64,000 bases of DNA from Clostridia bacterium (GTDB taxonomy: Bacteria; Bacillota; Limnochordia; DTU080; RSA5), in assembly GCA_002919235.1 (NCBI GenBank), contig PKEX01000008.1, forward strand, positions 138,530 to 202,529. Reading direction: 5' to 3'. Shown here one piece after another: positions 30,389 through 53,775 of this stretch (position 1 is the stretch's first letter; each line of letters starts with the position of its first letter). A model generated the notes under the pieces. That model did no database searches and was not told the DNA's origin. It was given only the letters and a program-made list of their open reading frames with translations. The position numbers were made by a program, and so were the translations under genes.

Positions 30389-32024
30389 GGTCGGCCCCTC
30401 CGACGAGACTGCGGCCCGGCCTCACCGCGACAGGACCCGCCTCCCCGTAATAGTCCCCTGGCGACACCGCGCCATCCCCGTCCACGTCCACCCAGCCGGC
30501 CACCGTCCACCGGCCCTCCGGCACACCGGTCACTTGATAGAGCCCTCCTGTGCCCGCCCGGGTTTCCGCGTGCACGAGCAGCCGGCCAGCGCTCTTTTCC
30601 ACCACCATGATCCGGGGGATCCCCGTCGAGACGGCGCCGTACACGTCCAGCCGGCCGTAGCCCATCCGGTCGTCCCGGAGGGCCGGCGCGCCGTCCGGGC
30701 GGATCGCGGTCATGTGGAGGAGCGCCCGAACGCTTTCAGGATCTTGGGGAAATCCCCGCCCCAGCATCAACGCGACGGCGCCCGCGACATGCGGCGCAGC
30801 GAACGAGGTCCCCGTACCGCAGTCAAAACCGCCGCCCGTCTTCAGCGTCAGCACACAGCTTCCGCCCCCGCCGCCCGGCGCCACCAGATCCAGGTCTGGA
30901 CCCCCGGCCGAATAGAACGGCACCTTCCCCTCCCGGTCGAAGGCGCCCACGGCGATGACCCCGGGATGGCTGGCAGGACACGCCAGATGCCCGCCGTCGT
31001 TTCCCGCGGCGGCCACCACGACGATGCCCGCCTGCAGGACCTCGTCCAAGGCCTGGGCCATCGCCGGGCTGCACTGGTAGGAAGGCCGGCTCCAGGCGCT
31101 CACCCGCAGGCTCAGGTTGATCACCTGCGCCCCTCGGCGGGCAGCCTCCCGGATCCCGGCGATCACGTCGTCCTCCCCGGAGTCGCGGAAAATGACCCGC
31201 ACCGGCAGGAGGCGCACTCCCGGCGCCACGCCCCGGCCCCCCACGCCGTTGCCGGCCACGGCGCCGATGATCCCGGCGACGGCGGTGCCGTGAGCGTCGG
31301 CCTGCTCCGGGCGGAAGGCGTCGTAGCCGTACGGGCCGCCGCTTTCAGCATCCCAGCCAGTCACCCAGAGATCCGGATCGTCCAGCTCAGGATGGGTGAA
31401 ATCGATCCCGGTATCGACCACGGCCACCACCACGCCCGCAGCGCTGGCCACCGTCCAGGCGTCGAAGGCCCGGATCGCCGAAAGAGCCCACTGATCCGCC
31501 GCGAGGGGATCGAAGCCGCCGCCCGCCGGCTCCGCCCGGCCGTTCTCTCCGGCCCAGGCGACGCCGGGGAGCCGCTCCAGCTGGCTGATGGCCTCGAGCG
31601 GCCCGCGCCGGCGGGCGTCGCGGACCACGTGCACCCCGGGCGACGCTTCCTTTTCATAGATGAAACCCAGGGGGCGCACCTGCTCCGCCAGCGAAGACGC
31701 CGTCTCGTCTAGGCCCGATCCCACCAGGTACTCGAAGGAGGGACCCGCGGCACTCCGCTCCCCCACCCGCGGCCCGGCCTGCGGCAAGGCGCCCCGCAGC
31801 GAGAGGGGGTGGACCTCCGCCCGGTGATCCAGCGCCCTTTCCGGCTCCCCGGCAGCCCCGGGCGAGACGATCTTCACCGCGCCGGTAACGCTCCCGGCTC
31901 CGGGAGCTGAACCCGGGCGCACCAGGCCCAAACACCCGGAAAGGGTGAGGGTCAGGATCAGCAGGAGCCCCAGGCGTCCTGCCCTGCGCCAGCATCGTCT
32001 CGCATCGTGCCAACCCGTCCGCAT
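30336..32024 (-). CDS. Subtilisin-like S8 serine peptidase, probable lipoprotein
   Basis: Catalytic motifs VVDTGID (Asp), HGTAVAG (His) and GTSFAAPHVAG (Ser). N-terminal LLLILTLTLSGC lipobox. Overlaps the nth 3' end by 53 nt. The start is approximate. Confidence 0.75.
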   Translation of the reverse strand: MRTGWHDARRCWRRAGRLGLLLILTLTLSGCLGLVRPGSAPGAGSVTGAVKIVSPGAAGEPERALDHRAEVHPLSLRGALPQAGPRVGERSAAGPSFEYLVGSGLDETASSLAEQVRPLGFIYEKEASPGVHVVRDARRRGPLEAISQLERLPGVAWAGENGRAEPAGGGFDPLAADQWALSAIRAFDAWTVASAAGVVVAVVDTGIDFTHPELDDPDLWVTGWDAESGGPYGYDAFRPEQADAHGTAVAGIIGAVAGNGVGGRGVAPGVRLLPVRVIFRDSGEDDVIAGIREAARRGAQVINLSLRVSAWSRPSYQCSPAMAQALDEVLQAGIVVVAAAGNDGGHLACPASHPGVIAVGAFDREGKVPFYSAGGPDLDLVAPGGGGGSCVLTLKTGGGFDCGTGTSFAAPHVAGAVALMLGRGFPQDPESVRALLHMTAIRPDGAPALRDDRMGYGRLDVYGAVSTGIPRIMVVEKSAGRLLVHAETRAGTGGLYQVTGVPEGRWTVAGWVDVDGDGAVSPGDYYGEAGPVAVRPGRSLVGGADLTLRPYDGSPLQVTAGP

Positions 32025-38124: not shown

Positions 38125-41100
38125 TCAGTAGAAGTCGTGCGAATCGGGGGCCGCTTTGAGCAGCTGCCCGCCGTCCAGGGAGACCACGTCGCCGAGGGGC
38201 CACACGTCCTCCGCCGGAAAGCTCAAGGTCCCTTCGATCCGCTGCACCTTCCCCGCCACCAAGAGCAGGCTTTCCCCCCGGATCACCGCCTTCTTTCGCT
38301 CGTAAAGATCGGGACGGATCACCACGTTGACCATCCCCGTCTCGTCTTCGAGGAGCAAGAAGACGATGCCCCGGGCGGTCTCGGGCCTCTGGCGCGCCAC
38401 CACCAGGCCGGCCACGTACCCCTTCTTGCCGTGGGACGCCCGGCTCATGGCCTGGACGGTGAACACGCGGCGCGAAAGGCGCGGCCGGAGAAGCTCCAGC
38501 AGGTGCTTCCCCGCGGAAAGCCCCGTCGCGGCATAGTCGGCCAGCACCTTTTCCCACGGGTCCATTTCAGGCAGTTCGACCTCGGGCACGTCGTACGCCA
38601 GCGGCAGGGGGACCTGGTAGGCGAAAGCCTGCCTTGCAGCTTTGCCGGTGCCGTCCCCTTTCTCGCCCCCGGCTCCCTCCAGGGCGGCCCTGCCGAGGCT
38701 TGTGGCCCGCGGCGCGAGGCCCAGCTTCCACAAGAGTTCCCGGCGGTCTTTGCCCAGGCGGTCGAAGGCGCCCGCCCAGATCAGGCGTTCCAGCTTGGCC
38801 TGGGGCAGGTCCACCCGGCGGCAGAAGTTGTCCAGGTCCGAAAACGGCCCTCCCCGCTCCCGCTCCGCGACGATCCGGGCGGCGTCCCGCGCTCCCAGCC
38901 CCTTGACGTAGTTGAACCCGAGGCGCACGGCGTTCCCCTTCACCGTGCACTTTACCCGGCTCTCATTGATGTCCGGCGGCAAGATCTCCACCCCGCGGCG
39001 CTTTGCGTCCCGCACGAGGGCGTGGGGCGGGTAAAACCCCATCGGCTGGCTGTTGAACAGGGCCGCCGTGTATTCCGCCGGGAAATACGTCCTGAGCCAC
39101 GCCGACTGGTACGCCAGGACGGCGAAGGCGTAGGCGTGGGACTTGGGAAACCCGAACTGGGAGAAGGCCAGGATCTTCTTAAAGACCAGCTCGGTGACGT
39201 CGTCCGGAACGCCTTTCTTGCGGGCCCCGTCGCGAAAGCTCTCGTAGAGCTGGGCCACGGCCTCTTCGGAGTTGCGCCTTCCCAGCGCCCGCCGCAGGGA
39301 TTCGGCTTGCCCCGGGGTAAACCCGGCCAGCGCCATGGCCACCTGGAGCACCTGGTCCTGGTAGAGAATGACGCCCAGGGTCTCCTCCAGCGCCGGTTCC
39401 AGGAGCGGGTGGTCGTACGGCGGGGTGTAAGGTCTCCCCTCTTTCGCCGCCCGCCGCTGCTCCGCTTTGCGCTGGACGTACGGGTGGACGGCGCCGCCCA
39501 CGATGGGGCCGGGGCGGACGATCGCGATCTCGATCGCGAGCTCGTCGAGGCTGCGGGGCTGCGTCCGGGGGAGCAGCTGGATCTGGGCCCGGCTTTCGAT
39601 CTGGAAGACCCCCACCGTATCCCCGGCCGCGATCTGGTCGTACACCACGGGGTCGTCGAAGGGGATGCGGCTCAGGTCGACGGGAGGCAGTTCCGGCCGG
39701 TTCTCGGCGATGAGCTCGACGCACTCCTCCACCAGCGAGAGCATGCCCAGGGCGAGGAAGTCCACCTTGATAAAGCGGGCGTCCTCGCACGAGTCCTTGT
39801 CCCACTGGCAGACCACCCGCCCCGGCATGCCGGCCTTTTCCAGCGGCACCAGCTCCACCAGGGGCCTGGACGAGATCACCATCCCCCCCACGTGCTGGGA
39901 GATGTGGCGGGGAAACCCCGAGATCTCCTCCGCCAGGGAAATCAGATCCCGCCAGAGCGGCGCTTCGACCTTGTCCCGGAACCCGGGCAGCGAGAGCATC
40001 ACCTCCCGCAGGCGCCTGCTGGACCCGCCTTCGCTGAGCTTGGCCAGCTTGTCCAGGTCCTGGAGCGGCAGCCCCAACGCCTTGCCGATGTCCCGCACGG
40101 CGCTGCGCAGCCTGTAGGTGGCGAACGAGCAGACCAGCGCCGCGTGCTCCCGGCCGTAGTGCTGGTACACCCGTTGGATCAGCGCCTCGCGGATGTCCCG
40201 GGGAAAATCGAGGTCGATGTCGGGCACCACCTCCAGCGTCTCGTTGAGAAAGCGGTCGATCGACAGGCGGTTTTGAATGGGATCGACGTGGGACAAGCCG
40301 ATCAGGTAGCAGATGAGCGAGCTGACCGAGCTGCCTCGCCCTCTTCCCGGGGGAAGGCGCGCCGCCTTGCGCGCCGCGCTGGTCCCCCGGACTTCTTGGG
40401 CCACCTCTTCCGCAAGGCGCATCAGGTCCCGGTAGACCAGGAAAAAGCCGGAAAGGCCGTGCCGCCGCACCAGCGCGAGCTCCTGGTCGAGCCGCGCCTC
40501 GGCTTGGCGGTAGAGCGAAGGCGGGCCGGAGCCGTACCGCTCCGCCAGGAGCGCCTGGCACACCCGCTCCAGCTGCTGATCCGCGGTCTCCTCATCGCCT
40601 TCCCGCTGGAAATCGGGGAAGGTGTAGCCCAGGTCGGCGGTGAGGTCGAACCCCTGGCAGCGCTCGCTCAAGATCTCGGTGGCCCGCAGCGCCTCCGGCA
40701 GCTCCCTGAACGCCCGGGCCATCTCCTGCGGGGACTTGAGATAGTACTCCGAGTTGGGGCGGCGCAGCCGGTGCGACGCGTCCAGGGTCGTCCGGTGCTT
40801 GATGGCCACCAGCACGTCCTGCAGCCGGTGGCGCTCCCGCACGTGATAGTGCACGTTGTTGGTGGCGACGACGCCCACCCCCAGGCGGCGGGCCACCTCC
40901 ACCAGGCGGCGCACCCGCGCCGTATCGCCCCGGGCTTTGTGGTGCTGCAGCTCCACCCACACCCGGTCGCGGCCGAACACCTCTAGATACGCCTTGAGCC
41001 GCTGGACCGCGTCGCCCAGCCGGCCTTGGTCCACCAGGGAGGGAATCTCGCCCTTGGGACAGCCCGTCAGGGCGATCAGCCCCTGGGAATGGCGAGCCAG

Positions 41101-41436
41101 GAGCTCCCACTCGACCCGGGGAGAGCCCCGGGGATGGTCGAGGTGGGCGCGGCTCAGGAGCCGGCAGAGATTGGCGTACCCCTGGGGGCTTTCCACGAGG
41201 AGCGTGAGATGGGCGCCGCTCGCCAGGGTGACCTCGGCCCCGGTGACGGGCTGCACCCCCCAGGCCTTGGCCGCCTGCGCGAAGGCCATGGCGCCGTAGA
41301 GCCCGTCGTGATCGGTGAGCGCCACGGCCTTGAGCCCGAGCTTGTGCGCCTGGAGGGCCAGCTCCTCGGGGAGCGAGGCGCCGTCCAGGAAAGAGTAGGC
41401 AGAATGGGCGTGGAGTTCAGCGTAGACCGGCATCAT
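38125..41436 (-). CDS. dnaE2: Error-prone DNA polymerase of the DnaE family (DnaE2/ImuC type)
   Basis: N-terminal PHP domain (YAELHAHSAYSFLDG) and a polIII-alpha core, about 1100 aa. Directly downstream of a Y-family polymerase gene and LexA boxes. ATG at 41436 overlaps the stop of the upstream small ORF. Confidence 0.85.
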   Translation of the reverse strand: MMPVYAELHAHSAYSFLDGASLPEELALQAHKLGLKAVALTDHDGLYGAMAFAQAAKAWGVQPVTGAEVTLASGAHLTLLVESPQGYANLCRLLSRAHLDHPRGSPRVEWELLARHSQGLIALTGCPKGEIPSLVDQGRLGDAVQRLKAYLEVFGRDRVWVELQHHKARGDTARVRRLVEVARRLGVGVVATNNVHYHVRERHRLQDVLVAIKHRTTLDASHRLRRPNSEYYLKSPQEMARAFRELPEALRATEILSERCQGFDLTADLGYTFPDFQREGDEETADQQLERVCQALLAERYGSGPPSLYRQAEARLDQELALVRRHGLSGFFLVYRDLMRLAEEVAQEVRGTSAARKAARLPPGRGRGSSVSSLICYLIGLSHVDPIQNRLSIDRFLNETLEVVPDIDLDFPRDIREALIQRVYQHYGREHAALVCSFATYRLRSAVRDIGKALGLPLQDLDKLAKLSEGGSSRRLREVMLSLPGFRDKVEAPLWRDLISLAEEISGFPRHISQHVGGMVISSRPLVELVPLEKAGMPGRVVCQWDKDSCEDARFIKVDFLALGMLSLVEECVELIAENRPELPPVDLSRIPFDDPVVYDQIAAGDTVGVFQIESRAQIQLLPRTQPRSLDELAIEIAIVRPGPIVGGAVHPYVQRKAEQRRAAKEGRPYTPPYDHPLLEPALEETLGVILYQDQVLQVAMALAGFTPGQAESLRRALGRRNSEEAVAQLYESFRDGARKKGVPDDVTELVFKKILAFSQFGFPKSHAYAFAVLAYQSAWLRTYFPAEYTAALFNSQPMGFYPPHALVRDAKRRGVEILPPDINESRVKCTVKGNAVRLGFNYVKGLGARDAARIVAERERGGPFSDLDNFCRRVDLPQAKLERLIWAGAFDRLGKDRRELLWKLGLAPRATSLGRAALEGAGGEKGDGTGKAARQAFAYQVPLPLAYDVPEVELPEMDPWEKVLADYAATGLSAGKHLLELLRPRLSRRVFTVQAMSRASHGKKGYVAGLVVARQRPETARGIVFLLLEDETGMVNVVIRPDLYERKKAVIRGESLLLVAGKVQRIEGTLSFPAEDVWPLGDVVSLDGGQLLKAAPDSHDFY

Positions 41437-41743
41437 CGGCGTATCGCCCTCGCCCGGCTGGTGCATCGTCGACGTCAACGGCTGGATGGGGGAAGGCGAG
41501 GCCGCCGGGAGCATAGAGCGGGACGCTCTCCCGCTGGCGGTACCAGGCCCCGGTCTCCAGGTCGCAAAAGAGGACGTCGAGGCGGCCGTCCTCCAGCTCC
41601 ACCAGGTAATAGAGGCGGTGGATCGGCCGGCGCCACCACTCGTCGTCGATCCGCCAAAGGTCCCGGACGGCCGTGACCCCTTGCCGGCGTCCCCGCCAGA
41701 TGAGAGAGAGGGGCCGTCCCTCCCGGTCGCAGGCCACTTTCAC
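41417..41743 (-). CDS. Uncharacterised small protein (about 108 aa) between imuB and dnaE2, Trp/Arg-rich
   Basis: High GC3 in this frame from the GTG at 41743 (14 nt after the imuB stop). An alternative ATG at 41809 lies 6 nt after GGAGGT. The stop overlaps the dnaE2 start (ATGATGCC...TGA). Confidence 0.55.
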   Translation of the reverse strand: MKVACDREGRPLSLIWRGRRQGVTAVRDLWRIDDEWWRRPIHRLYYLVELEDGRLDVLFCDLETGAWYRQRESVPLYAPGGLAFPHPAVDVDDAPAGRGRYADDAGLR

Positions 41744-41757
41744 CGGCTGGGGCTGGT

Positions 41758-43023
41758 TTAAGGATCGAAGTCGATCAGGGCGTAGCGGCGCTCCGGAATG
41801 CGGGACCATGGTTCTACCTCCGCGATGCGAAAAAGGCCGGTAGTGCCGTAACGGGCCTTGACCGCGGCCAAGGCGTCTTTGAGGCGCGCGAGCCTCTGGC
41901 CGCCGCCGGGAAAGAGCGGCTCCTGGCCGACGTAAGGCCCTCCCAGCAGCGTCACTTTGAGCGTGACGGCCGAAACCGCCCCCGGCAGCTCCACCCCTGC
42001 GAGCCTGCGGGCCAGCATCGCCTCCAGCCTTTCGGGATCGCCCACCGGCTCGTGCAGCGTGATGCTCTTCTCCCACGTCTCTTCGTCGATGCGAGCGGCG
42101 AGGACAAGCTGGCGCACCGTCGCCTCTCCCCGCTCCTTGCGCCGCCACACCCGGGCGACCAGCTGCCGGATCCCCGCCCAAAACGCGGCCCACTCGCTGA
42201 CCGGCGCGGGAAACTCAAGGCTTTCGGCGATGGGGCGGAAGGGGCGGCGCGGCACCAGCGCCGAATCGTCCCGTCCCCGGGAAAGCTCCCAGGCCCGGCG
42301 GCCTTCGGGACCCAGGCGCGCCTCGAGCGCGGCAGGATGCAGCGCGGCGATCTGGCCCAGGCGCTCAAGGCCAAAGAGGGAAAGGCTGCGCTGGGTCTCG
42401 CCGCTCACCGGCAGGTGATCAATGGGACACGGGGCGAGAAACCGCTCTATCTCATGCCGCAGCACGATCCGGGGGCGGCCTCGCGGTGCGTGCCATGCGG
42501 CGACGCCGGCCACGAACTTGTTGGGACCGGCGCCGGCCCGGACGTCAAAGAGGCCCTCTGCCGCCGGGCTGCCCGCGGCCGGTCCCAGCCCGCGCCTTAC
42601 GGCGGCGTCGACGAGGCGTTCCAAAAGCGCTCCGAGCTTGGGATAGAGGCGCTCCATCCCCGTGAGATCCACGTATGCCGCGCCCAGGCCGGCGTCTTCC
42701 ACCGCGGGCGCCTCCGCCTCCAGGACGTCGAGAAAGGCGTCGTGAAGGCGCTGGTACCACTCGGGATCCGGCGAGAGCGCCACCACGTCGCGGCACAGGG
42801 CGATGCTCTCGCGCACCCGCATTCCCAGGCGGATCCCCCGCTCCGCCGCCTCCGGCGAGCAGTGTGCGACGGGCAGCGCCGCCGCTCCGCCGGAGGCGGC
42901 GCGCGCCGTGATGACGAACGGCCGGCCCCGCAGCCCGGGGCGGCGGGCCAGCTCGGCTTGAACGGGAAAATCGGGAACGCGGATGCACCCGATCCAGCGA
43001 CGGCTGGTGCGTGCAGCAGGCAT
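41758..43023 (-). CDS. imuB: Y-family DNA polymerase-like protein (ImuB-type)
   Basis: IGCIRVPDFPVQ N-terminus typical of DinB/ImuB. 421 aa. ATG at 43023 lies 9 nt after AAAGGAG. Confidence 0.8.
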   Translation of the reverse strand: MPAARTSRRWIGCIRVPDFPVQAELARRPGLRGRPFVITARAASGGAAALPVAHCSPEAAERGIRLGMRVRESIALCRDVVALSPDPEWYQRLHDAFLDVLEAEAPAVEDAGLGAAYVDLTGMERLYPKLGALLERLVDAAVRRGLGPAAGSPAAEGLFDVRAGAGPNKFVAGVAAWHAPRGRPRIVLRHEIERFLAPCPIDHLPVSGETQRSLSLFGLERLGQIAALHPAALEARLGPEGRRAWELSRGRDDSALVPRRPFRPIAESLEFPAPVSEWAAFWAGIRQLVARVWRRKERGEATVRQLVLAARIDEETWEKSITLHEPVGDPERLEAMLARRLAGVELPGAVSAVTLKVTLLGGPYVGQEPLFPGGGQRLARLKDALAAVKARYGTTGLFRIAEVEPWSRIPERRYALIDFDP

Positions 43024-43075
43024 CGACACGCGCTCCTTTCGCGCCGCCCGGCTGCCCCGCCGGGCGGCGCTGTTT

Positions 43076-43089
43076 CGAACGGGTGTTCG
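43076..43089 (-). promoter_or_regulatory. LexA operator, Gram-positive Cheo-box type (CGAACGGGTGTTCG)
   Basis: Perfect CGAAC-N4-GTTCG palindrome just downstream of the -10 element of the imuB promoter. Confidence 0.65.
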
Positions 43090-43090
43090 T

Positions 43091-43120
43091 ATTTTAACCG
43101 AACGCGTGTACGCCTGTCAA
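43091..43120 (-). promoter_or_regulatory. Sigma-A-like promoter of the imuB - small ORF - dnaE2 operon (-35 TTGACA, 17-18-bp spacer, -10 TTAAAAT)
   Basis: Perfect TTGACA at 43115-43120 on the minus strand. The AT-rich -10 is the only such element in the region and is interleaved with the LexA boxes. Confidence 0.55.
43099..43112 (-). promoter_or_regulatory. Second, imperfect LexA box (CGAACGCGTGTACG) inside the promoter spacer
   Basis: One mismatch in the right arm (GTAC instead of GTTC). 9 bp from the first box. Confidence 0.5.
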
Positions 43121-43148: not shown

Positions 43149-43904
43149 TCACATGTAGGATCCGCCGTTGATGGCCAGCACCTGGCCCGTCATCAGGTCG
43201 GAGAACTTGGAGACCAGCACCAGCGCCCCGTCGGCGATCTCGTCCGCCGTGGCCAGCCGTCCCAAGGGGATCTCTTCGATGAGCTTCGCCCGCACCGCCG
43301 GATCGTCCAGGCCGAACCGCTTCACCACGTCCTCCGTCTCCGTAAAGCCCGGCATCAGGCAGTTGACCTGCGCCCAAGGCGCGAGCTCCCTGGCAAAGCA
43401 CTTGGTGAGGGCGAGGACGCCCGCCTTGGCCGCGCAGTAGTTCGCCCCGTTCTTGCGCCCCCTCAGGGCGGACGCCGCCGAGACCATGATCACCTTTCCT
43501 GCCCCCCTCGCCCTCATGGCCGGGATCGCCGCCTGCGTGCACAAGAACGCCCCTTTTAAGTTGACCTCCACCACCCGGTCCCAGTCCTCTTCAGACATCT
43601 CCTCCGCCGGCCCGTCCCGGGCGACCCCCGCGTTGTTCACCAGGATGTCGAGGCCCCCCCACTCGTCCACGATGCGCTCGACCATGGAGCGGACTTCGTC
43701 GCGCCGCGCCACGTCAGCCCTCACCGCCAGCGCCTCCCCGCCGTCCCTGCGGATCTCCTGGACCACCTCCCGGGCCCGCTCGGCCGAAGAGAGATAGTTG
43801 ACGGCCACCTTGGCACCCTCCCGGGCGAACCGCCGGGCGATGGCCCTTCCAATCCCCCGGCTGGCGCCGGTGACCAACGCGATCTTGCCGTCCAAACAGC
43901 CCAT
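43149..43904 (-). CDS. Short-chain dehydrogenase/reductase (FabG-like 3-oxoacyl-ACP reductase family)
   Basis: TGASRGIG cofactor motif, NNAG and the S...YxxxK catalytic pattern (YCAAK). Confidence 0.8.
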   Translation of the reverse strand: MGCLDGKIALVTGASRGIGRAIARRFAREGAKVAVNYLSSAERAREVVQEIRRDGGEALAVRADVARRDEVRSMVERIVDEWGGLDILVNNAGVARDGPAEEMSEEDWDRVVEVNLKGAFLCTQAAIPAMRARGAGKVIMVSAASALRGRKNGANYCAAKAGVLALTKCFARELAPWAQVNCLMPGFTETEDVVKRFGLDDPAVRAKLIEEIPLGRLATADEIADGALVLVSKFSDLMTGQVLAINGGSYM

Positions 43905-51112: not shown

Positions 51113-52360
51113 ATGGCGGCGCCCTTGAGGTTCTGGGTGCTCACGACTGCCGGCCCGGCGTCCGTGCAGCCCATCAGCCGGATGATCGAAGCTTTTTCCA
51201 GGCGCAGCGGCGTGCCGGTGGAACTCCGGGCCATTCCGTGGGGCCGGGGGTGGAGGGCGCTGACCCGGGCCATCAAGAGGCGGGACCTTCCCGACGTCAT
51301 GCACATCGGGTCGACGTGGATCGCGACCCTGGCCCATCTCGATCTGCTGGCGGAAGCGCCCCGCGGCGTGTGGACGCAGCCGACCGTCGCCCCGTGGGTG
51401 GACGAGGCCGCATTGGCGGGCGGCGTCGCCTGGGCCGTGCCGTGGACGGTGGAGTGCAACGTCCTCATCGGCCGCACCGATCTCCTGGAAGCGGCGGGGG
51501 TGGCGCCCGAAGAGTTTTCCGACTGGGACGGCTTTCTCCAGGTCTGCCGGCGCCTCGACGGCATGGGGCGCTCCGGGGACGGCCCGCTCAAAGGCATCCT
51601 CCCCGTGGCCGTCCACTCCCGGCCGGACTCCGTCACCCTCCACTGGGCGACGCCGTGGCTCTGGTCCGGCGGGTGGCGGCTGGACCGAGAGACACTGGTC
51701 CACGGCGTGGTGCTCCGCGACGAGAGCGCCGAGCCGGGGCTGCAGTTTATCGCGGAGCTTTTCAAGACCAGCCCACTGCTGCCGGAGATGGCCGATACGT
51801 CCAGCTTCCGCGTGGCGCTGGACTTCTTTGAGGCCGGCCGGTACGTCTTTTACTCCAGCCATTCGGTGCACTTTTTCAGACCGCTGGTGCAGGCAGGCCC
51901 CGGTGAACGCCCGTCCCGCTGGCCCATGGCCATGTTTCCGCTGCCCCGGGGCCCGGCCGGATCCCTGACGCGCGGGGGCGGCTCGTTTCTGGCCGTCTCC
52001 CGGACGTCGAAGCAGCCGGCCGTCGCATGGGAGCTGGTCCGCTTTCTCACCGAGGACCAGCAGCTGACGGAGCTGGCCCTGGTCACCGGAGAGCTGCCCG
52101 CGCTCCAGGGCACCTTTTGGAGCCAGTACGCGCACCACCCGGCCCACCGGGAGGTCTTACAGATGCTGCGCAACGCCCGGGCCTATCCCCCGCACCCGCT
52201 GTGGCGGACGGTAGAGTCGCTGCTGGTGAACGGGATCGGCGAGATCTGCTGGCGATTTGCCCGCGGCCAGGGATACGACGCCGCCCTGCAGTCTTTGACG
52301 GCTCAAATCGATCAGCGGATCCAGAACCTACTTCGACTCGGCTGGGAGGTGTCGGCGTGA
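51113..52360 (+). CDS. Extracellular-solute-binding-protein-like (SBP_bac_1 / MalE-like fold) protein with no evident signal peptide
   Basis: ATG at 51113 lies 11 nt after GGGGGGAGG. The sequence matches sugar-SBP family patterns but the N-terminus is not hydrophobic. The stop overlaps the downstream GTG (GTGA). Confidence 0.6.
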   Translation: MAAPLRFWVLTTAGPASVQPISRMIEAFSRRSGVPVELRAIPWGRGWRALTRAIKRRDLPDVMHIGSTWIATLAHLDLLAEAPRGVWTQPTVAPWVDEAALAGGVAWAVPWTVECNVLIGRTDLLEAAGVAPEEFSDWDGFLQVCRRLDGMGRSGDGPLKGILPVAVHSRPDSVTLHWATPWLWSGGWRLDRETLVHGVVLRDESAEPGLQFIAELFKTSPLLPEMADTSSFRVALDFFEAGRYVFYSSHSVHFFRPLVQAGPGERPSRWPMAMFPLPRGPAGSLTRGGGSFLAVSRTSKQPAVAWELVRFLTEDQQLTELALVTGELPALQGTFWSQYAHHPAHREVLQMLRNARAYPPHPLWRTVESLLVNGIGEICWRFARGQGYDAALQSLTAQIDQRIQNLLRLGWEVSA

Positions 52361-53775
52361 GGCTCGTCGATCCCACCCAGGCCGCCGCTTTGGGCGCCCG
52401 GGCCGGCCTGGCCCTTTGCCAAGGCGACGCGACGTACCGGGCGTTTTGGCGGGCCGCCGAGGTGATCCTGCAGCCTCTTTCCCACACCTTCGAACAAGTG
52501 AGCATTTTCGTCGCCGACCCGCAGGAGGACGTGTTCCACGAGGAAGCCATCGCCGGTCCCGACGGCGGCCAAGGCTCGGACGAGCTTCCCATGTACCAGC
52601 TCCCCGACGCCCTGCTCAAGGACGGCCGGGTGGTGGAACGCTCCCGGGGCCCCTACCGCCAGCTGCTGGCCCCCATCCGCCTGGCCGGCCAGCTCATCGG
52701 GCTCTTGTCGCTCACATCCCGGGCTGGCGCCACCCCGGCGCAGCTGGACGCGGTGGCCGCGCTGGCCGATGCGCTGGCTCCGGGCGTCGGGTACGCGTTG
52801 CAGCGGCGCGCGGCGGAGCAGGCTCTCTCCGTGATGCACGCGGCGGCCAAGATGAGCCGGGAACTGGTGGGGGTCAGCGGGTTTTCTCCCGACCGCCTCC
52901 TCTACCGGTTCGTCTCCCTGGTGGTGGAACAGCTCAAATTCGACCGGGCGACGCTGGTGGTCTTCTCCGAAGAACAGGCGGCGCCGGCCCGGGTCATCTG
53001 CGCGTCCCTGGGACGTCCTCCCACCGAGATCAACCCTGAGCGGCTGCCGCCTATCCCGCATCTGATCACCGACGATCCTCTTCCGGTGCAGGACGTGCCG
53101 GGGGTGTGGATCCCCATCAACTTAGGCCGGCAGCGGCTGGGAGCGCTGCTCGCGGACAACCTGTACTCCCTGGAGACGCCGTCCCGGGAGACCATCCAGT
53201 CGCTCATCGATCTCACGGGCCAGGTGGCGCTCTCGCTGGAAAACGTCCGCCTGTTCGAACGGCTTCAGGCCATGGCGCTGCGCGACGACCTCACGGGCCT
53301 CTTCCGTCCCGGGTACTTTTACGAACGGCTCCAGGAGGAACTGGCCCGCCTTGAGCAGGATGGCGAGCCCGCGGCGCTGATCTTCATCGACCTGGACGAT
53401 TTCAAGGCCGTCAACGACACCTACGGCCACCGGGCGGGCGACGCCTTGCTGGTGCAGGTGGCTCAGGAGCTCAAGTCGGGACTTCGGCCCCGCGACGTGG
53501 TCTGCCGCATGGGCGGGGACGAGTTCATCGTCTTCCTCCCCCGGGTGAAAGAGACGGACGCCGTGGCCATCGCGCAGCGGGTCTGCGACCGGATCGCCCG
53601 CAAGGAGTACGTCCTCCCCGACGGGGCACGGGCGCGCGTCCGGGTCAGCGCCGGGGTCTCTCTCTACCCCCAGAACGCCCGCGACTGGCAGAAGCTGATC
53701 CACCGCGCCGACCAGGCTATGTATTTCGCCAAGCGCAGCGGCAAGGGGCGGGTGTACACCGCTGCGCTCACGTGA
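52357..53775 (+). CDS. Diguanylate cyclase with two GAF domains and an intact GGDEF domain
   Basis: RMGGDEFIV active-site motif. Inhibitory site RxxD (RPRD). GTG at 52357 lies 6 nt after GGGAGGTG. Confidence 0.8.
   Translation: MRLVDPTQAAALGARAGLALCQGDATYRAFWRAAEVILQPLSHTFEQVSIFVADPQEDVFHEEAIAGPDGGQGSDELPMYQLPDALLKDGRVVERSRGPYRQLLAPIRLAGQLIGLLSLTSRAGATPAQLDAVAALADALAPGVGYALQRRAAEQALSVMHAAAKMSRELVGVSGFSPDRLLYRFVSLVVEQLKFDRATLVVFSEEQAAPARVICASLGRPPTEINPERLPPIPHLITDDPLPVQDVPGVWIPINLGRQRLGALLADNLYSLETPSRETIQSLIDLTGQVALSLENVRLFERLQAMALRDDLTGLFRPGYFYERLQEELARLEQDGEPAALIFIDLDDFKAVNDTYGHRAGDALLVQVAQELKSGLRPRDVVCRMGGDEFIVFLPRVKETDAVAIAQRVCDRIARKEYVLPDGARARVRVSAGVSLYPQNARDWQKLIHRADQAMYFAKRSGKGRVYTAALT

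Follow-up and report, generated by a model that had tools for sequence, protein, structure and literature searches.

A probable split-ImuB DnaE2 mutasome operon without imuA in a high-G+C Clostridia-lineage genome

Operon layout and the absence of imuA from the window

How could a DnaE2 mutagenesis cassette do without ImuA, and what does the smallest of its genes encode? These questions are raised by an operon on the minus strand (38125..43120) of a 64-kb stretch of DNA, referred to here as the window, from a genome deposited as Clostridia bacterium. The operon consists of one promoter followed by three overlapping open reading frames (ORFs): a Y-family gene, a small gene and dnaE2. A preliminary description of the window had recognised this arrangement of a Y-family gene, an overlapping small ORF and a DnaE2 gene, and our analysis recovered each of its elements in place. 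The description interpreted the locus as an ImuA-less, LexA-controlled DnaE2 cassette in which the small ORF might stand in for ImuA. The first part of this interpretation holds; the second does not, as the small ORF encodes ImuB-C, the C-terminal domain of ImuB. ORF and domain analysis of the window gives the tightly coupled order iPolY – imuB-C – dnaE2, where iPolY is a Y-family protein with a disrupted active site. We conclude that the locus is very probably a LexA-repressed operon encoding a DnaE2 mutasome of the split-ImuB type, DnaE2X-iPolY-ImuB-C-RecA.

The composition is not new. A DnaE2 system made up of DnaE2, an inactive PolY and a standalone ImuB-C, and lacking ImuA, was described by Aravind in 2013 (PMC3765255), and the same composition was reported in a Firmicute, as the Kyrpidia tusciae type, by Timinskas & Venclovas in 2019 (PMC6511836). 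No imuA was found in genomes of the Kyrpidia tusciae type, and a RecA-N-terminus-like (RecA-NT-like) motif was noted on their Y-family protein (PMC6511836). RecA has been proposed to replace ImuA in such split systems (PMC6511836, PMC12926913). In 2026 the type was named DnaE2X-iPolY-ImuB-C-RecA and termed split ImuB; it was put forward as a possible precursor of ImuA-ImuB-DnaE2, and no other DnaE2 complex was found together with all three types of replication system (PMC12926913). The novelty implied by the preliminary description thus falls away, the ImuA-less layout having been published already (PMC3765255, PMC6511836, PMC12926913). Compared by described composition rather than by protein sequence, the window and the Kyrpidia tusciae type share the same components in the same order, an operon without imuA and a Gram-positive lineage, and we see no essential difference between them.

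We searched for ImuA by tblastn, using as queries a proteobacterial ImuA (from Rhizobium), an actinobacterial ImuA' (from Kitasatospora) and a protein from Thermomicrobium that resembles RecA. The search covered the window and the surroundings of 80 related loci. These loci are the best of at least 558 confirmed ImuB-C loci obtained from a scan for the WRIDDEW motif in one genome per GTDB species. No credible gene for ImuA, ImuA' or a RecA-like protein was detected in the 64-kb window, in accord with the preliminary description, which had seen none at the locus, and none within ±6 kb of the 80 related loci. The best match (E = 0.055, 30999..31217) lies inside a gene for a 622-residue subtilisin-like protein and was rejected. 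The window does not contain a lexA gene either.

Given that 64 kb of the genome were examined, the locus might belong to a canonical three-part mutasome whose ImuA or ImuA' is encoded elsewhere. We consider this unlikely. Neither the window nor the neighbourhood of the 80 related loci contains ImuA, and surveys of complete genomes report no imuA anywhere in genomes with the split system (PMC6511836, PMC12926913).

A split ImuB

In the split-ImuB reading, the Y-family gene and the small gene encode the two halves of ImuB, and their boundary deserves a close look. The small gene lies in an open frame (41417..42193) that overlaps both neighbouring genes. The NCBI Prokaryotic Genome Annotation Pipeline (PGAP) starts it at GTG 41743, giving a protein of 108 residues. 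This deposited start is probably wrong. ATG 41809, which yields 130 residues and places the gene at 41417..41809 on the minus strand, fits better, because the conserved RLRxLNxP motif of the homologues is encoded upstream of GTG 41743; because a Shine-Dalgarno sequence, GGAGGT (41816..41821, minus strand), is located 6 nt before ATG 41809, within iPolY codons (A-E-V); because a database protein that is 98% identical (P0002) has 130 residues and begins with those encoded from ATG 41809 (MVPHSG...); and because the first β-strand in the AlphaFold model of the small protein starts at residue 21. In a relative that is 82% identical (L091), imuB-C begins with TTG, and the annotation misses the gene altogether.

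With this start, the 3' end of the iPolY gene and the 5' end of imuB-C overlap out of frame by 52 nt (41758..41809, minus strand). The overlap is dual coding, and the small frame is −1 relative to that of iPolY; the iPolY stop codon (41758..41760) and the −1 frame change part iPolY from ImuB-C. The same 52-nt overlap is present in 44 distinct loci including the window, mostly from Chloroflexota with a few Clostridia-lineage genomes (L003 5935..5986 and L090 7200..7251 are examples among the 43 others). For most Gemmatimonadota loci we found either an overlap of 4 nt or genes that are separate. Codon-position conservation inside the overlap tracks the frame of iPolY, translated as the tail VEVxPWSRIPERxxAL. 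In 42 of the 44 loci the small-gene start is preceded by GGAG or GAGG. The third position of an iPolY proline codon doubles as the first base of the small-gene start codon; at this shared base we counted A 27 times, G 15 times, T twice and C not once, compared with background fractions of 0.38 for C and 0.08 for A in the third position of other proline codons of the same genes. This bias, together with the Shine-Dalgarno sequences, indicates selection for an internal initiation site and hence, as far as sequences can tell, translational coupling. At its other end imuB-C also overlaps its neighbour, its stop codon (41417..41419) lying within a 20-nt overlap with the start of dnaE2. Since the genes overlap by 52 and 20 nt, translation of all three is probably coupled. 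Beyond that, we put the chances at roughly even that the 52-nt overlap sets the ratio of the two ImuB halves and marks the point of fission or fusion between split and fused ImuB.

The −1 relationship of the two frames, the constant overlap length of 52 nt across phyla and the existence of fused forms in relatives would all suit a programmed −1 ribosomal frameshift in the overlap, which would produce a fused ImuB and make the separate small protein secondary. Such a frameshift is very unlikely, because no slippery heptamer is conserved in the overlap. Moreover, the strong Shine-Dalgarno sequence and the selected start codon at the 5' end of the overlap point to independent, coupled initiation.

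The assignment of the small protein to ImuB-C relies on its family. Taken alone, the window protein scores 19.9 bits against Pfam DUF6504, below the cut-off of 24.2. DUF6504 matches the C-terminal 76 residues of canonical Rhizobium ImuB with 25.7 bits, which is above the cut-off, and is found (E ≤ 0.01) in 22 of 36 members of the small-protein family (best E = 4.1e-7); these 22 gave no other domain match. A profile built from 72 family members was aligned by hhalign to residues 429-486 of Rhizobium ImuB with a probability of 89% and E = 2.3e-6. Pairwise BLASTP of the small protein with canonical ImuB agreed with this register, and the alignment takes in the N-terminal RPxRL...P motif. AlphaFold models the protein as all-β, with pLDDT values above 90 over most of residues 21-90 and disordered ends; the β core comprises residues 21-92 (41534..41749). 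The protein contains no P-loop. Two proteins within the split-gene family are in-frame fusions of iPolY and ImuB-C (P0130, 503 residues, and P0007, a fragment of 149 residues). As these natural fusions sit inside the split-gene family, fission or fusion must have occurred within the lineage.

Judged by sequence, then, the small gene encodes the C-terminal domain of ImuB separately, and iPolY and the small protein together are a split ImuB. The DUF6504 matches, the profile and BLASTP alignments, the model and the fusions all identify a detached ImuB tail and not an ImuA substitute; at the level of the family, the evidence for a standalone ImuB-C beside the Y-family gene is clear. This disposes of the suggestion in the preliminary description that the small ORF acts in place of ImuA, as the protein is not RecA-like. 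It is highly improbable that the protein represents a novel replacement for ImuA or some new, unrelated subunit of the mutasome. Such a proposal could draw on the lack of imuA in the window, on the sub-threshold DUF6504 score and on the lack of a related solved structure, as none was found by sequence search and the best Foldseek hit in the PDB had E = 0.81. The last point is matched by a published statement that ImuB-C has no related fold among known structures (PMC12926913). Against the proposal stand the alignment to the C-terminal domain of canonical ImuB, the identity of that domain with the DUF6504 found in the family, the fused relatives, and the all-β architecture without a P-loop, whereas the core of RecA, a homologue of ImuA, is a P-loop ATPase (PMC12926913).

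An inactive Y-family protein and an error-prone polymerase

The Y-family gene (41758..43029, minus strand) encodes the Pfam domains IMS and IMS_C and corresponds to ImuB without its C-terminal domain. The protein has 423 residues if translation starts at GTG 43029 or 421 residues from ATG 43023; the latter start, which is the PGAP call and has GGAG 9 nt upstream, is more likely. The protein missed the cut-offs of all NCBIfam DinB models (256-399 bits), its top DinB score being 93.5 bits where the cut-off is 389. In an alignment with E. coli and Rhizobium DinB, residues D8, D103 and E104 of the E. coli enzyme are replaced by R, G and A, and these catalytic residues are kept in none of 63 iPolY family members (0/63). 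We therefore regard iPolY as a catalytically dead scaffold that retains the Y-family fold, in line with the designation of the gene as imuB type in the preliminary description; the protein is not a canonical DinB.

Towards its C-terminus iPolY contains two motifs that may mediate interactions. A putative β-clamp-binding motif, QEPLF (residues 369-373; 41911..41925, minus strand), lines up with QLVLGL near the C-terminus of E. coli DinB, the clamp-binding motif of Pol IV. It is followed by a RecA-NT-like stretch, QRLARLKDALAAVKARYGTTGLFRIAE (residues 378-404; 41818..41898, minus strand). When the family C-termini were compared with E. coli RecA using hhalign, this region matched RecA residues 6-32 with P = 0.005, a weak statistic for a short motif. 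The stretch also aligns with the corresponding region of canonical Rhizobium ImuB. M. smegmatis ImuB has the order QLPLW, RecA-NT, ImuB-C (PMC11791113), and in the window, too, the RecA-NT-like motif is C-terminal to the clamp motif.

The polymerase gene occupies 38125..41436 on the minus strand if translation starts at ATG 41436, the PGAP start. Its open frame is longer (38125..41514, 1129 residues), and the alignment to NCBIfam model NF004225 begins at residue 28 of this longer version; ATG 41436, giving 1103 residues, is the likely start. The Pfam domains are PHP, DNA_pol3_alpha, finger, HHH_6 and OB, and the chain terminates directly behind the OB fold, lacking the C-terminal extension seen in E. 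coli DnaE. All three aspartates aligned to D401, D403 and D555 of E. coli DnaE are present. NF004225, 'error-prone DNA polymerase', was the only model passed (1019.9 bits, cut-off 939). The scores against all replicative DnaE and PolC equivalog models were below the cut-offs, with 771.8 bits against 1002 for NF004226 and lower scores for the others, so that neither by equivalog score nor by C-terminal extension does the protein resemble a replicative DnaE (DnaE1 or DnaE3). A neighbour-joining tree with E. coli DnaE as root places the window DnaE2 with the DnaE2 of 16 other iPolY/ImuB-C loci, apart from the sampled ImuA-linked DnaE2 sequences of Rhizobium and Kitasatospora. This separate branch, obtained from our own tree and not the published one, agrees with the split-ImuB type.

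Because of the model scores, the tree and the lost DinB residues, neither of the two outcomes that the preliminary description had named as undoing a mutasome interpretation, a replicative polymerase and a canonical DinB, applies here, and its assignment of a DnaE2-type polymerase is borne out. An ordinary housekeeping pair, with an active DinB (Pol IV) beside a replicative DnaE, would fit the superfamilies that the two proteins share with DinB and DnaE, and a second dnaE or polC would be outside the scope of a 64-kb view, but this explanation is scarcely credible in the face of the R/G/A substitutions and the 93.5-bit score against a 389-bit DinB cut-off, of a polymerase that passes NF004225 only, lacks the E. 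coli DnaE-like extension and groups with DnaE2, and of SOS operators in front of the operon.

Probable SOS control, known mutasomes and relatives

The operon is preceded by a σ70-type promoter (43091..43120, minus strand), with a −35 element TTGACA (43120..43115), an 18-nt spacer and a −10 element TAAAAT (43096..43091). The promoter matches 11 of 12 consensus positions and is the sole such site in 6.4 kb, where 0.1 would be expected. Two LexA boxes of the Gram-positive (Cheo) type, CGAACN4GTTCG, overlap it. Box 1, CGTACACGCGTTCG (43099..43112), has one mismatch and occupies the promoter spacer. Box 2, CGAACACCCGTTCG (43076..43089), is a perfect palindrome that begins 2 nt past the −10 element and spans the position where transcription is expected to start; the 64-kb window has no other perfect match, with 0.08 expected by chance. 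The Gram-positive-type LexA boxes of the preliminary description are thus a perfect and a one-mismatch box on the only strong promoter.

L091 and a less closely related Clostridia metagenome-assembled genome (L034) have retained the order −35, box, −10, box, while the sequence around it diverges among the three genomes. The counterparts of box 1, in the equal position, are CGTACATACGTTCG in L091 and CGTACGTACGTTCG in L034. Upstream sequence was usable for 64 related loci, and 35 of them carry a perfect GAACN4GTTC at the start of polY or just upstream, against a background of 0.022 per kb. Given the conserved two-box promoter and the perfect boxes upstream of polY in relatives, control of the operon by LexA as part of the SOS response is well supported at the sequence level.

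Between LexA box 2 and the Shine-Dalgarno sequence, the 5' untranslated region contains a GC-rich hairpin (43041..43070, minus strand) with a perfect 12-bp stem and a 6-nt loop (−42 kcal/mol with flanks, z = −4.3). The hairpin is retained in L091, where C>T is compensated by G>A, and is absent from L034. No Rfam family matched anywhere in the window at the gathering threshold.

Modelled on fused ImuB systems and published AlphaFold models, the split complex might operate as follows. Upon DNA damage, RecA filaments would trigger the self-cleavage of LexA and the operon would be derepressed. iPolY would dock on the β clamp, and ImuB-C and the iPolY thumb would hold DnaE2 via its PHP domain. The RecA-NT-like motif would recruit housekeeping RecA to the position taken by ImuA or ImuA' in Proteobacteria and Actinobacteria, and DnaE2 would perform error-prone lesion bypass.

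Several points weigh against assigning the locus to a split-ImuB mutasome. The window small protein itself falls short of the DUF6504 cut-off, and its assignment depends on evidence from the family. The RecA-NT match, in a motif of 27 residues, is statistically weak. The polY/imuB-C pair of many related genomes does not have DnaE2 as its neighbour. Binding and induction through LexA, contacts with the clamp and with RecA, and the mutagenic function are all inferred. Finally, the view extends over 64 kb of the genome; an imuA elsewhere, a separate replicative polymerase and recA would lie outside it. These points notwithstanding, the locus displays every testable feature of the split-ImuB type, and it lacks two features that define the canonical mutasome, an imuA or imuA' gene in the cassette and an ImuB-C fused to the Y-family region.

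In other respects the split-ImuB locus resembles the canonical ImuA(ImuA')-ImuB-DnaE2 mutasome of Mycobacterium tuberculosis, Pseudomonas, Caulobacter and Myxococcus: it shares the dead Y-family scaffold, the clamp motif, RecA-NT, ImuB-C, DnaE2 as the catalytic polymerase and SOS control. Unlike the canonical system, it has no ImuA in the cassette, its ImuB is split by a stop codon and a frame change, and its DnaE2 branches apart from the sampled sequences that are linked to ImuA (Rhizobium, Kitasatospora). The operon lexA-imuB-C-polY of Geobacter sulfurreducens likewise has a standalone ImuB-C beside a Y-family gene and is damage-inducible without ImuA, but its Y-family polymerase is predicted to be active and it has no DnaE2 (PMC6511836), whereas in the window the Y-family protein is dead and DnaE2 is catalytic. 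E. coli Pol V (UmuD'2C-RecA-ATP) is also an SOS mutasome; its Y-family subunit attaches to the clamp and, via a RecA-NT-like motif, to a RecA monomer, and it has a small β-rich accessory subunit. It differs in that UmuC is active, the accessory subunit is UmuD' (SH3-like) and not ImuB-C, and there is no C-family polymerase.

In M. tuberculosis and other pathogens, mutation after DNA damage and drug resistance are driven by DnaE2 mutasomes, and the split, ImuA-less version is the proposed evolutionary precursor of DnaE2 mutasomes. The present locus is one clean example from a high-G+C Clostridia-lineage metagenome-assembled genome, with a textbook double LexA operator, and reveals no new principle. 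Its practical value is modest: the ImuB-C start can probably be corrected, and the polY/imuB-C overlap emerges as a conserved, selected feature. The available parts of PMC6511836 and PMC12926913 mention neither the 52-nt overlap with its embedded Shine-Dalgarno sequence nor the double LexA operator. The conserved overlap and the likely start-site misannotation are minor additions to a known type.

The best 80 loci are mostly from Chloroflexota and Gemmatimonadota, and include Armatimonadota and one Clostridia metagenome-assembled genome. The polY/imuB-C pair is almost always present. In many of these loci DnaE2 is directly downstream of the pair, so that the three-gene order for which the preliminary description had proposed a survey of related genomes does recur; in some, DnaE2 is nearby on the opposite strand, and in many Gemmatimonadota loci it is absent within 6 kb. 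As DnaE2 is often not adjacent to the pair, a complex of all three parts does not extend to every member of the family. Some loci have a gap of 0.4-5 kb between imuB-C and dnaE2, and we looked there for an additional conserved gene; the ORFs in these gaps are heterogeneous and none recurs. At least 558 matches with one genome per species indicate that standalone ImuB-C of the WRIDDEW type is common in uncultured lineages. The DnaE2X group was called small in the 2026 survey of complete genomes (PMC12926913).

Two further arrangements were seen among the relatives. In Longimicrobiales, polY is located 1-5 kb from imuB-C and no DnaE2 is found within 6 kb, which suggests other partner sets. The Thermomicrobium roseum megaplasmid (NC_011961.1; L082 1703..7168) carries a different cassette with a 357-residue RecA-like protein, a 416-residue IMS_C-only protein and DnaE2, possibly an ImuA3-type system with a reduced ImuB.

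The preliminary description had called the genome Firmicutes-like, which agrees with the depositor's label despite a window G+C content of about 69%. We found no sign of recent horizontal acquisition of the cassette; its G+C content (0.69-0.71) matches that of the window, and the flanks consist of core genes. These flanks have the character of core chromosome, with NADH:quinone oxidoreductase/antiporter-type subunits at about 10.9-19.3 kb (nuo operon), fumarase and peptidases. The genes called around the operon encode a short-chain dehydrogenase/reductase (SDR), an RND transporter, an MFS transporter, a nitrilase-family protein and others. The SDR gene (43149..43904), located upstream of the operon promoter as described before, was verified with Pfam. 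The same SDR gene is the immediate upstream neighbour of the operon in three genomes of the Clostridia lineage (the window; L091, 5131..5886; L034, just upstream of 4660), and the order SDR-polY-imuB-C-dnaE2 is common to the window and these two closest relatives; the adjacency is probably plain synteny. Farther along the window, a GGDEF protein is encoded at 52027..53775, and a series of small genes on the minus strand at 54-64 kb may, by its size pattern, be a ribosomal-protein cluster.

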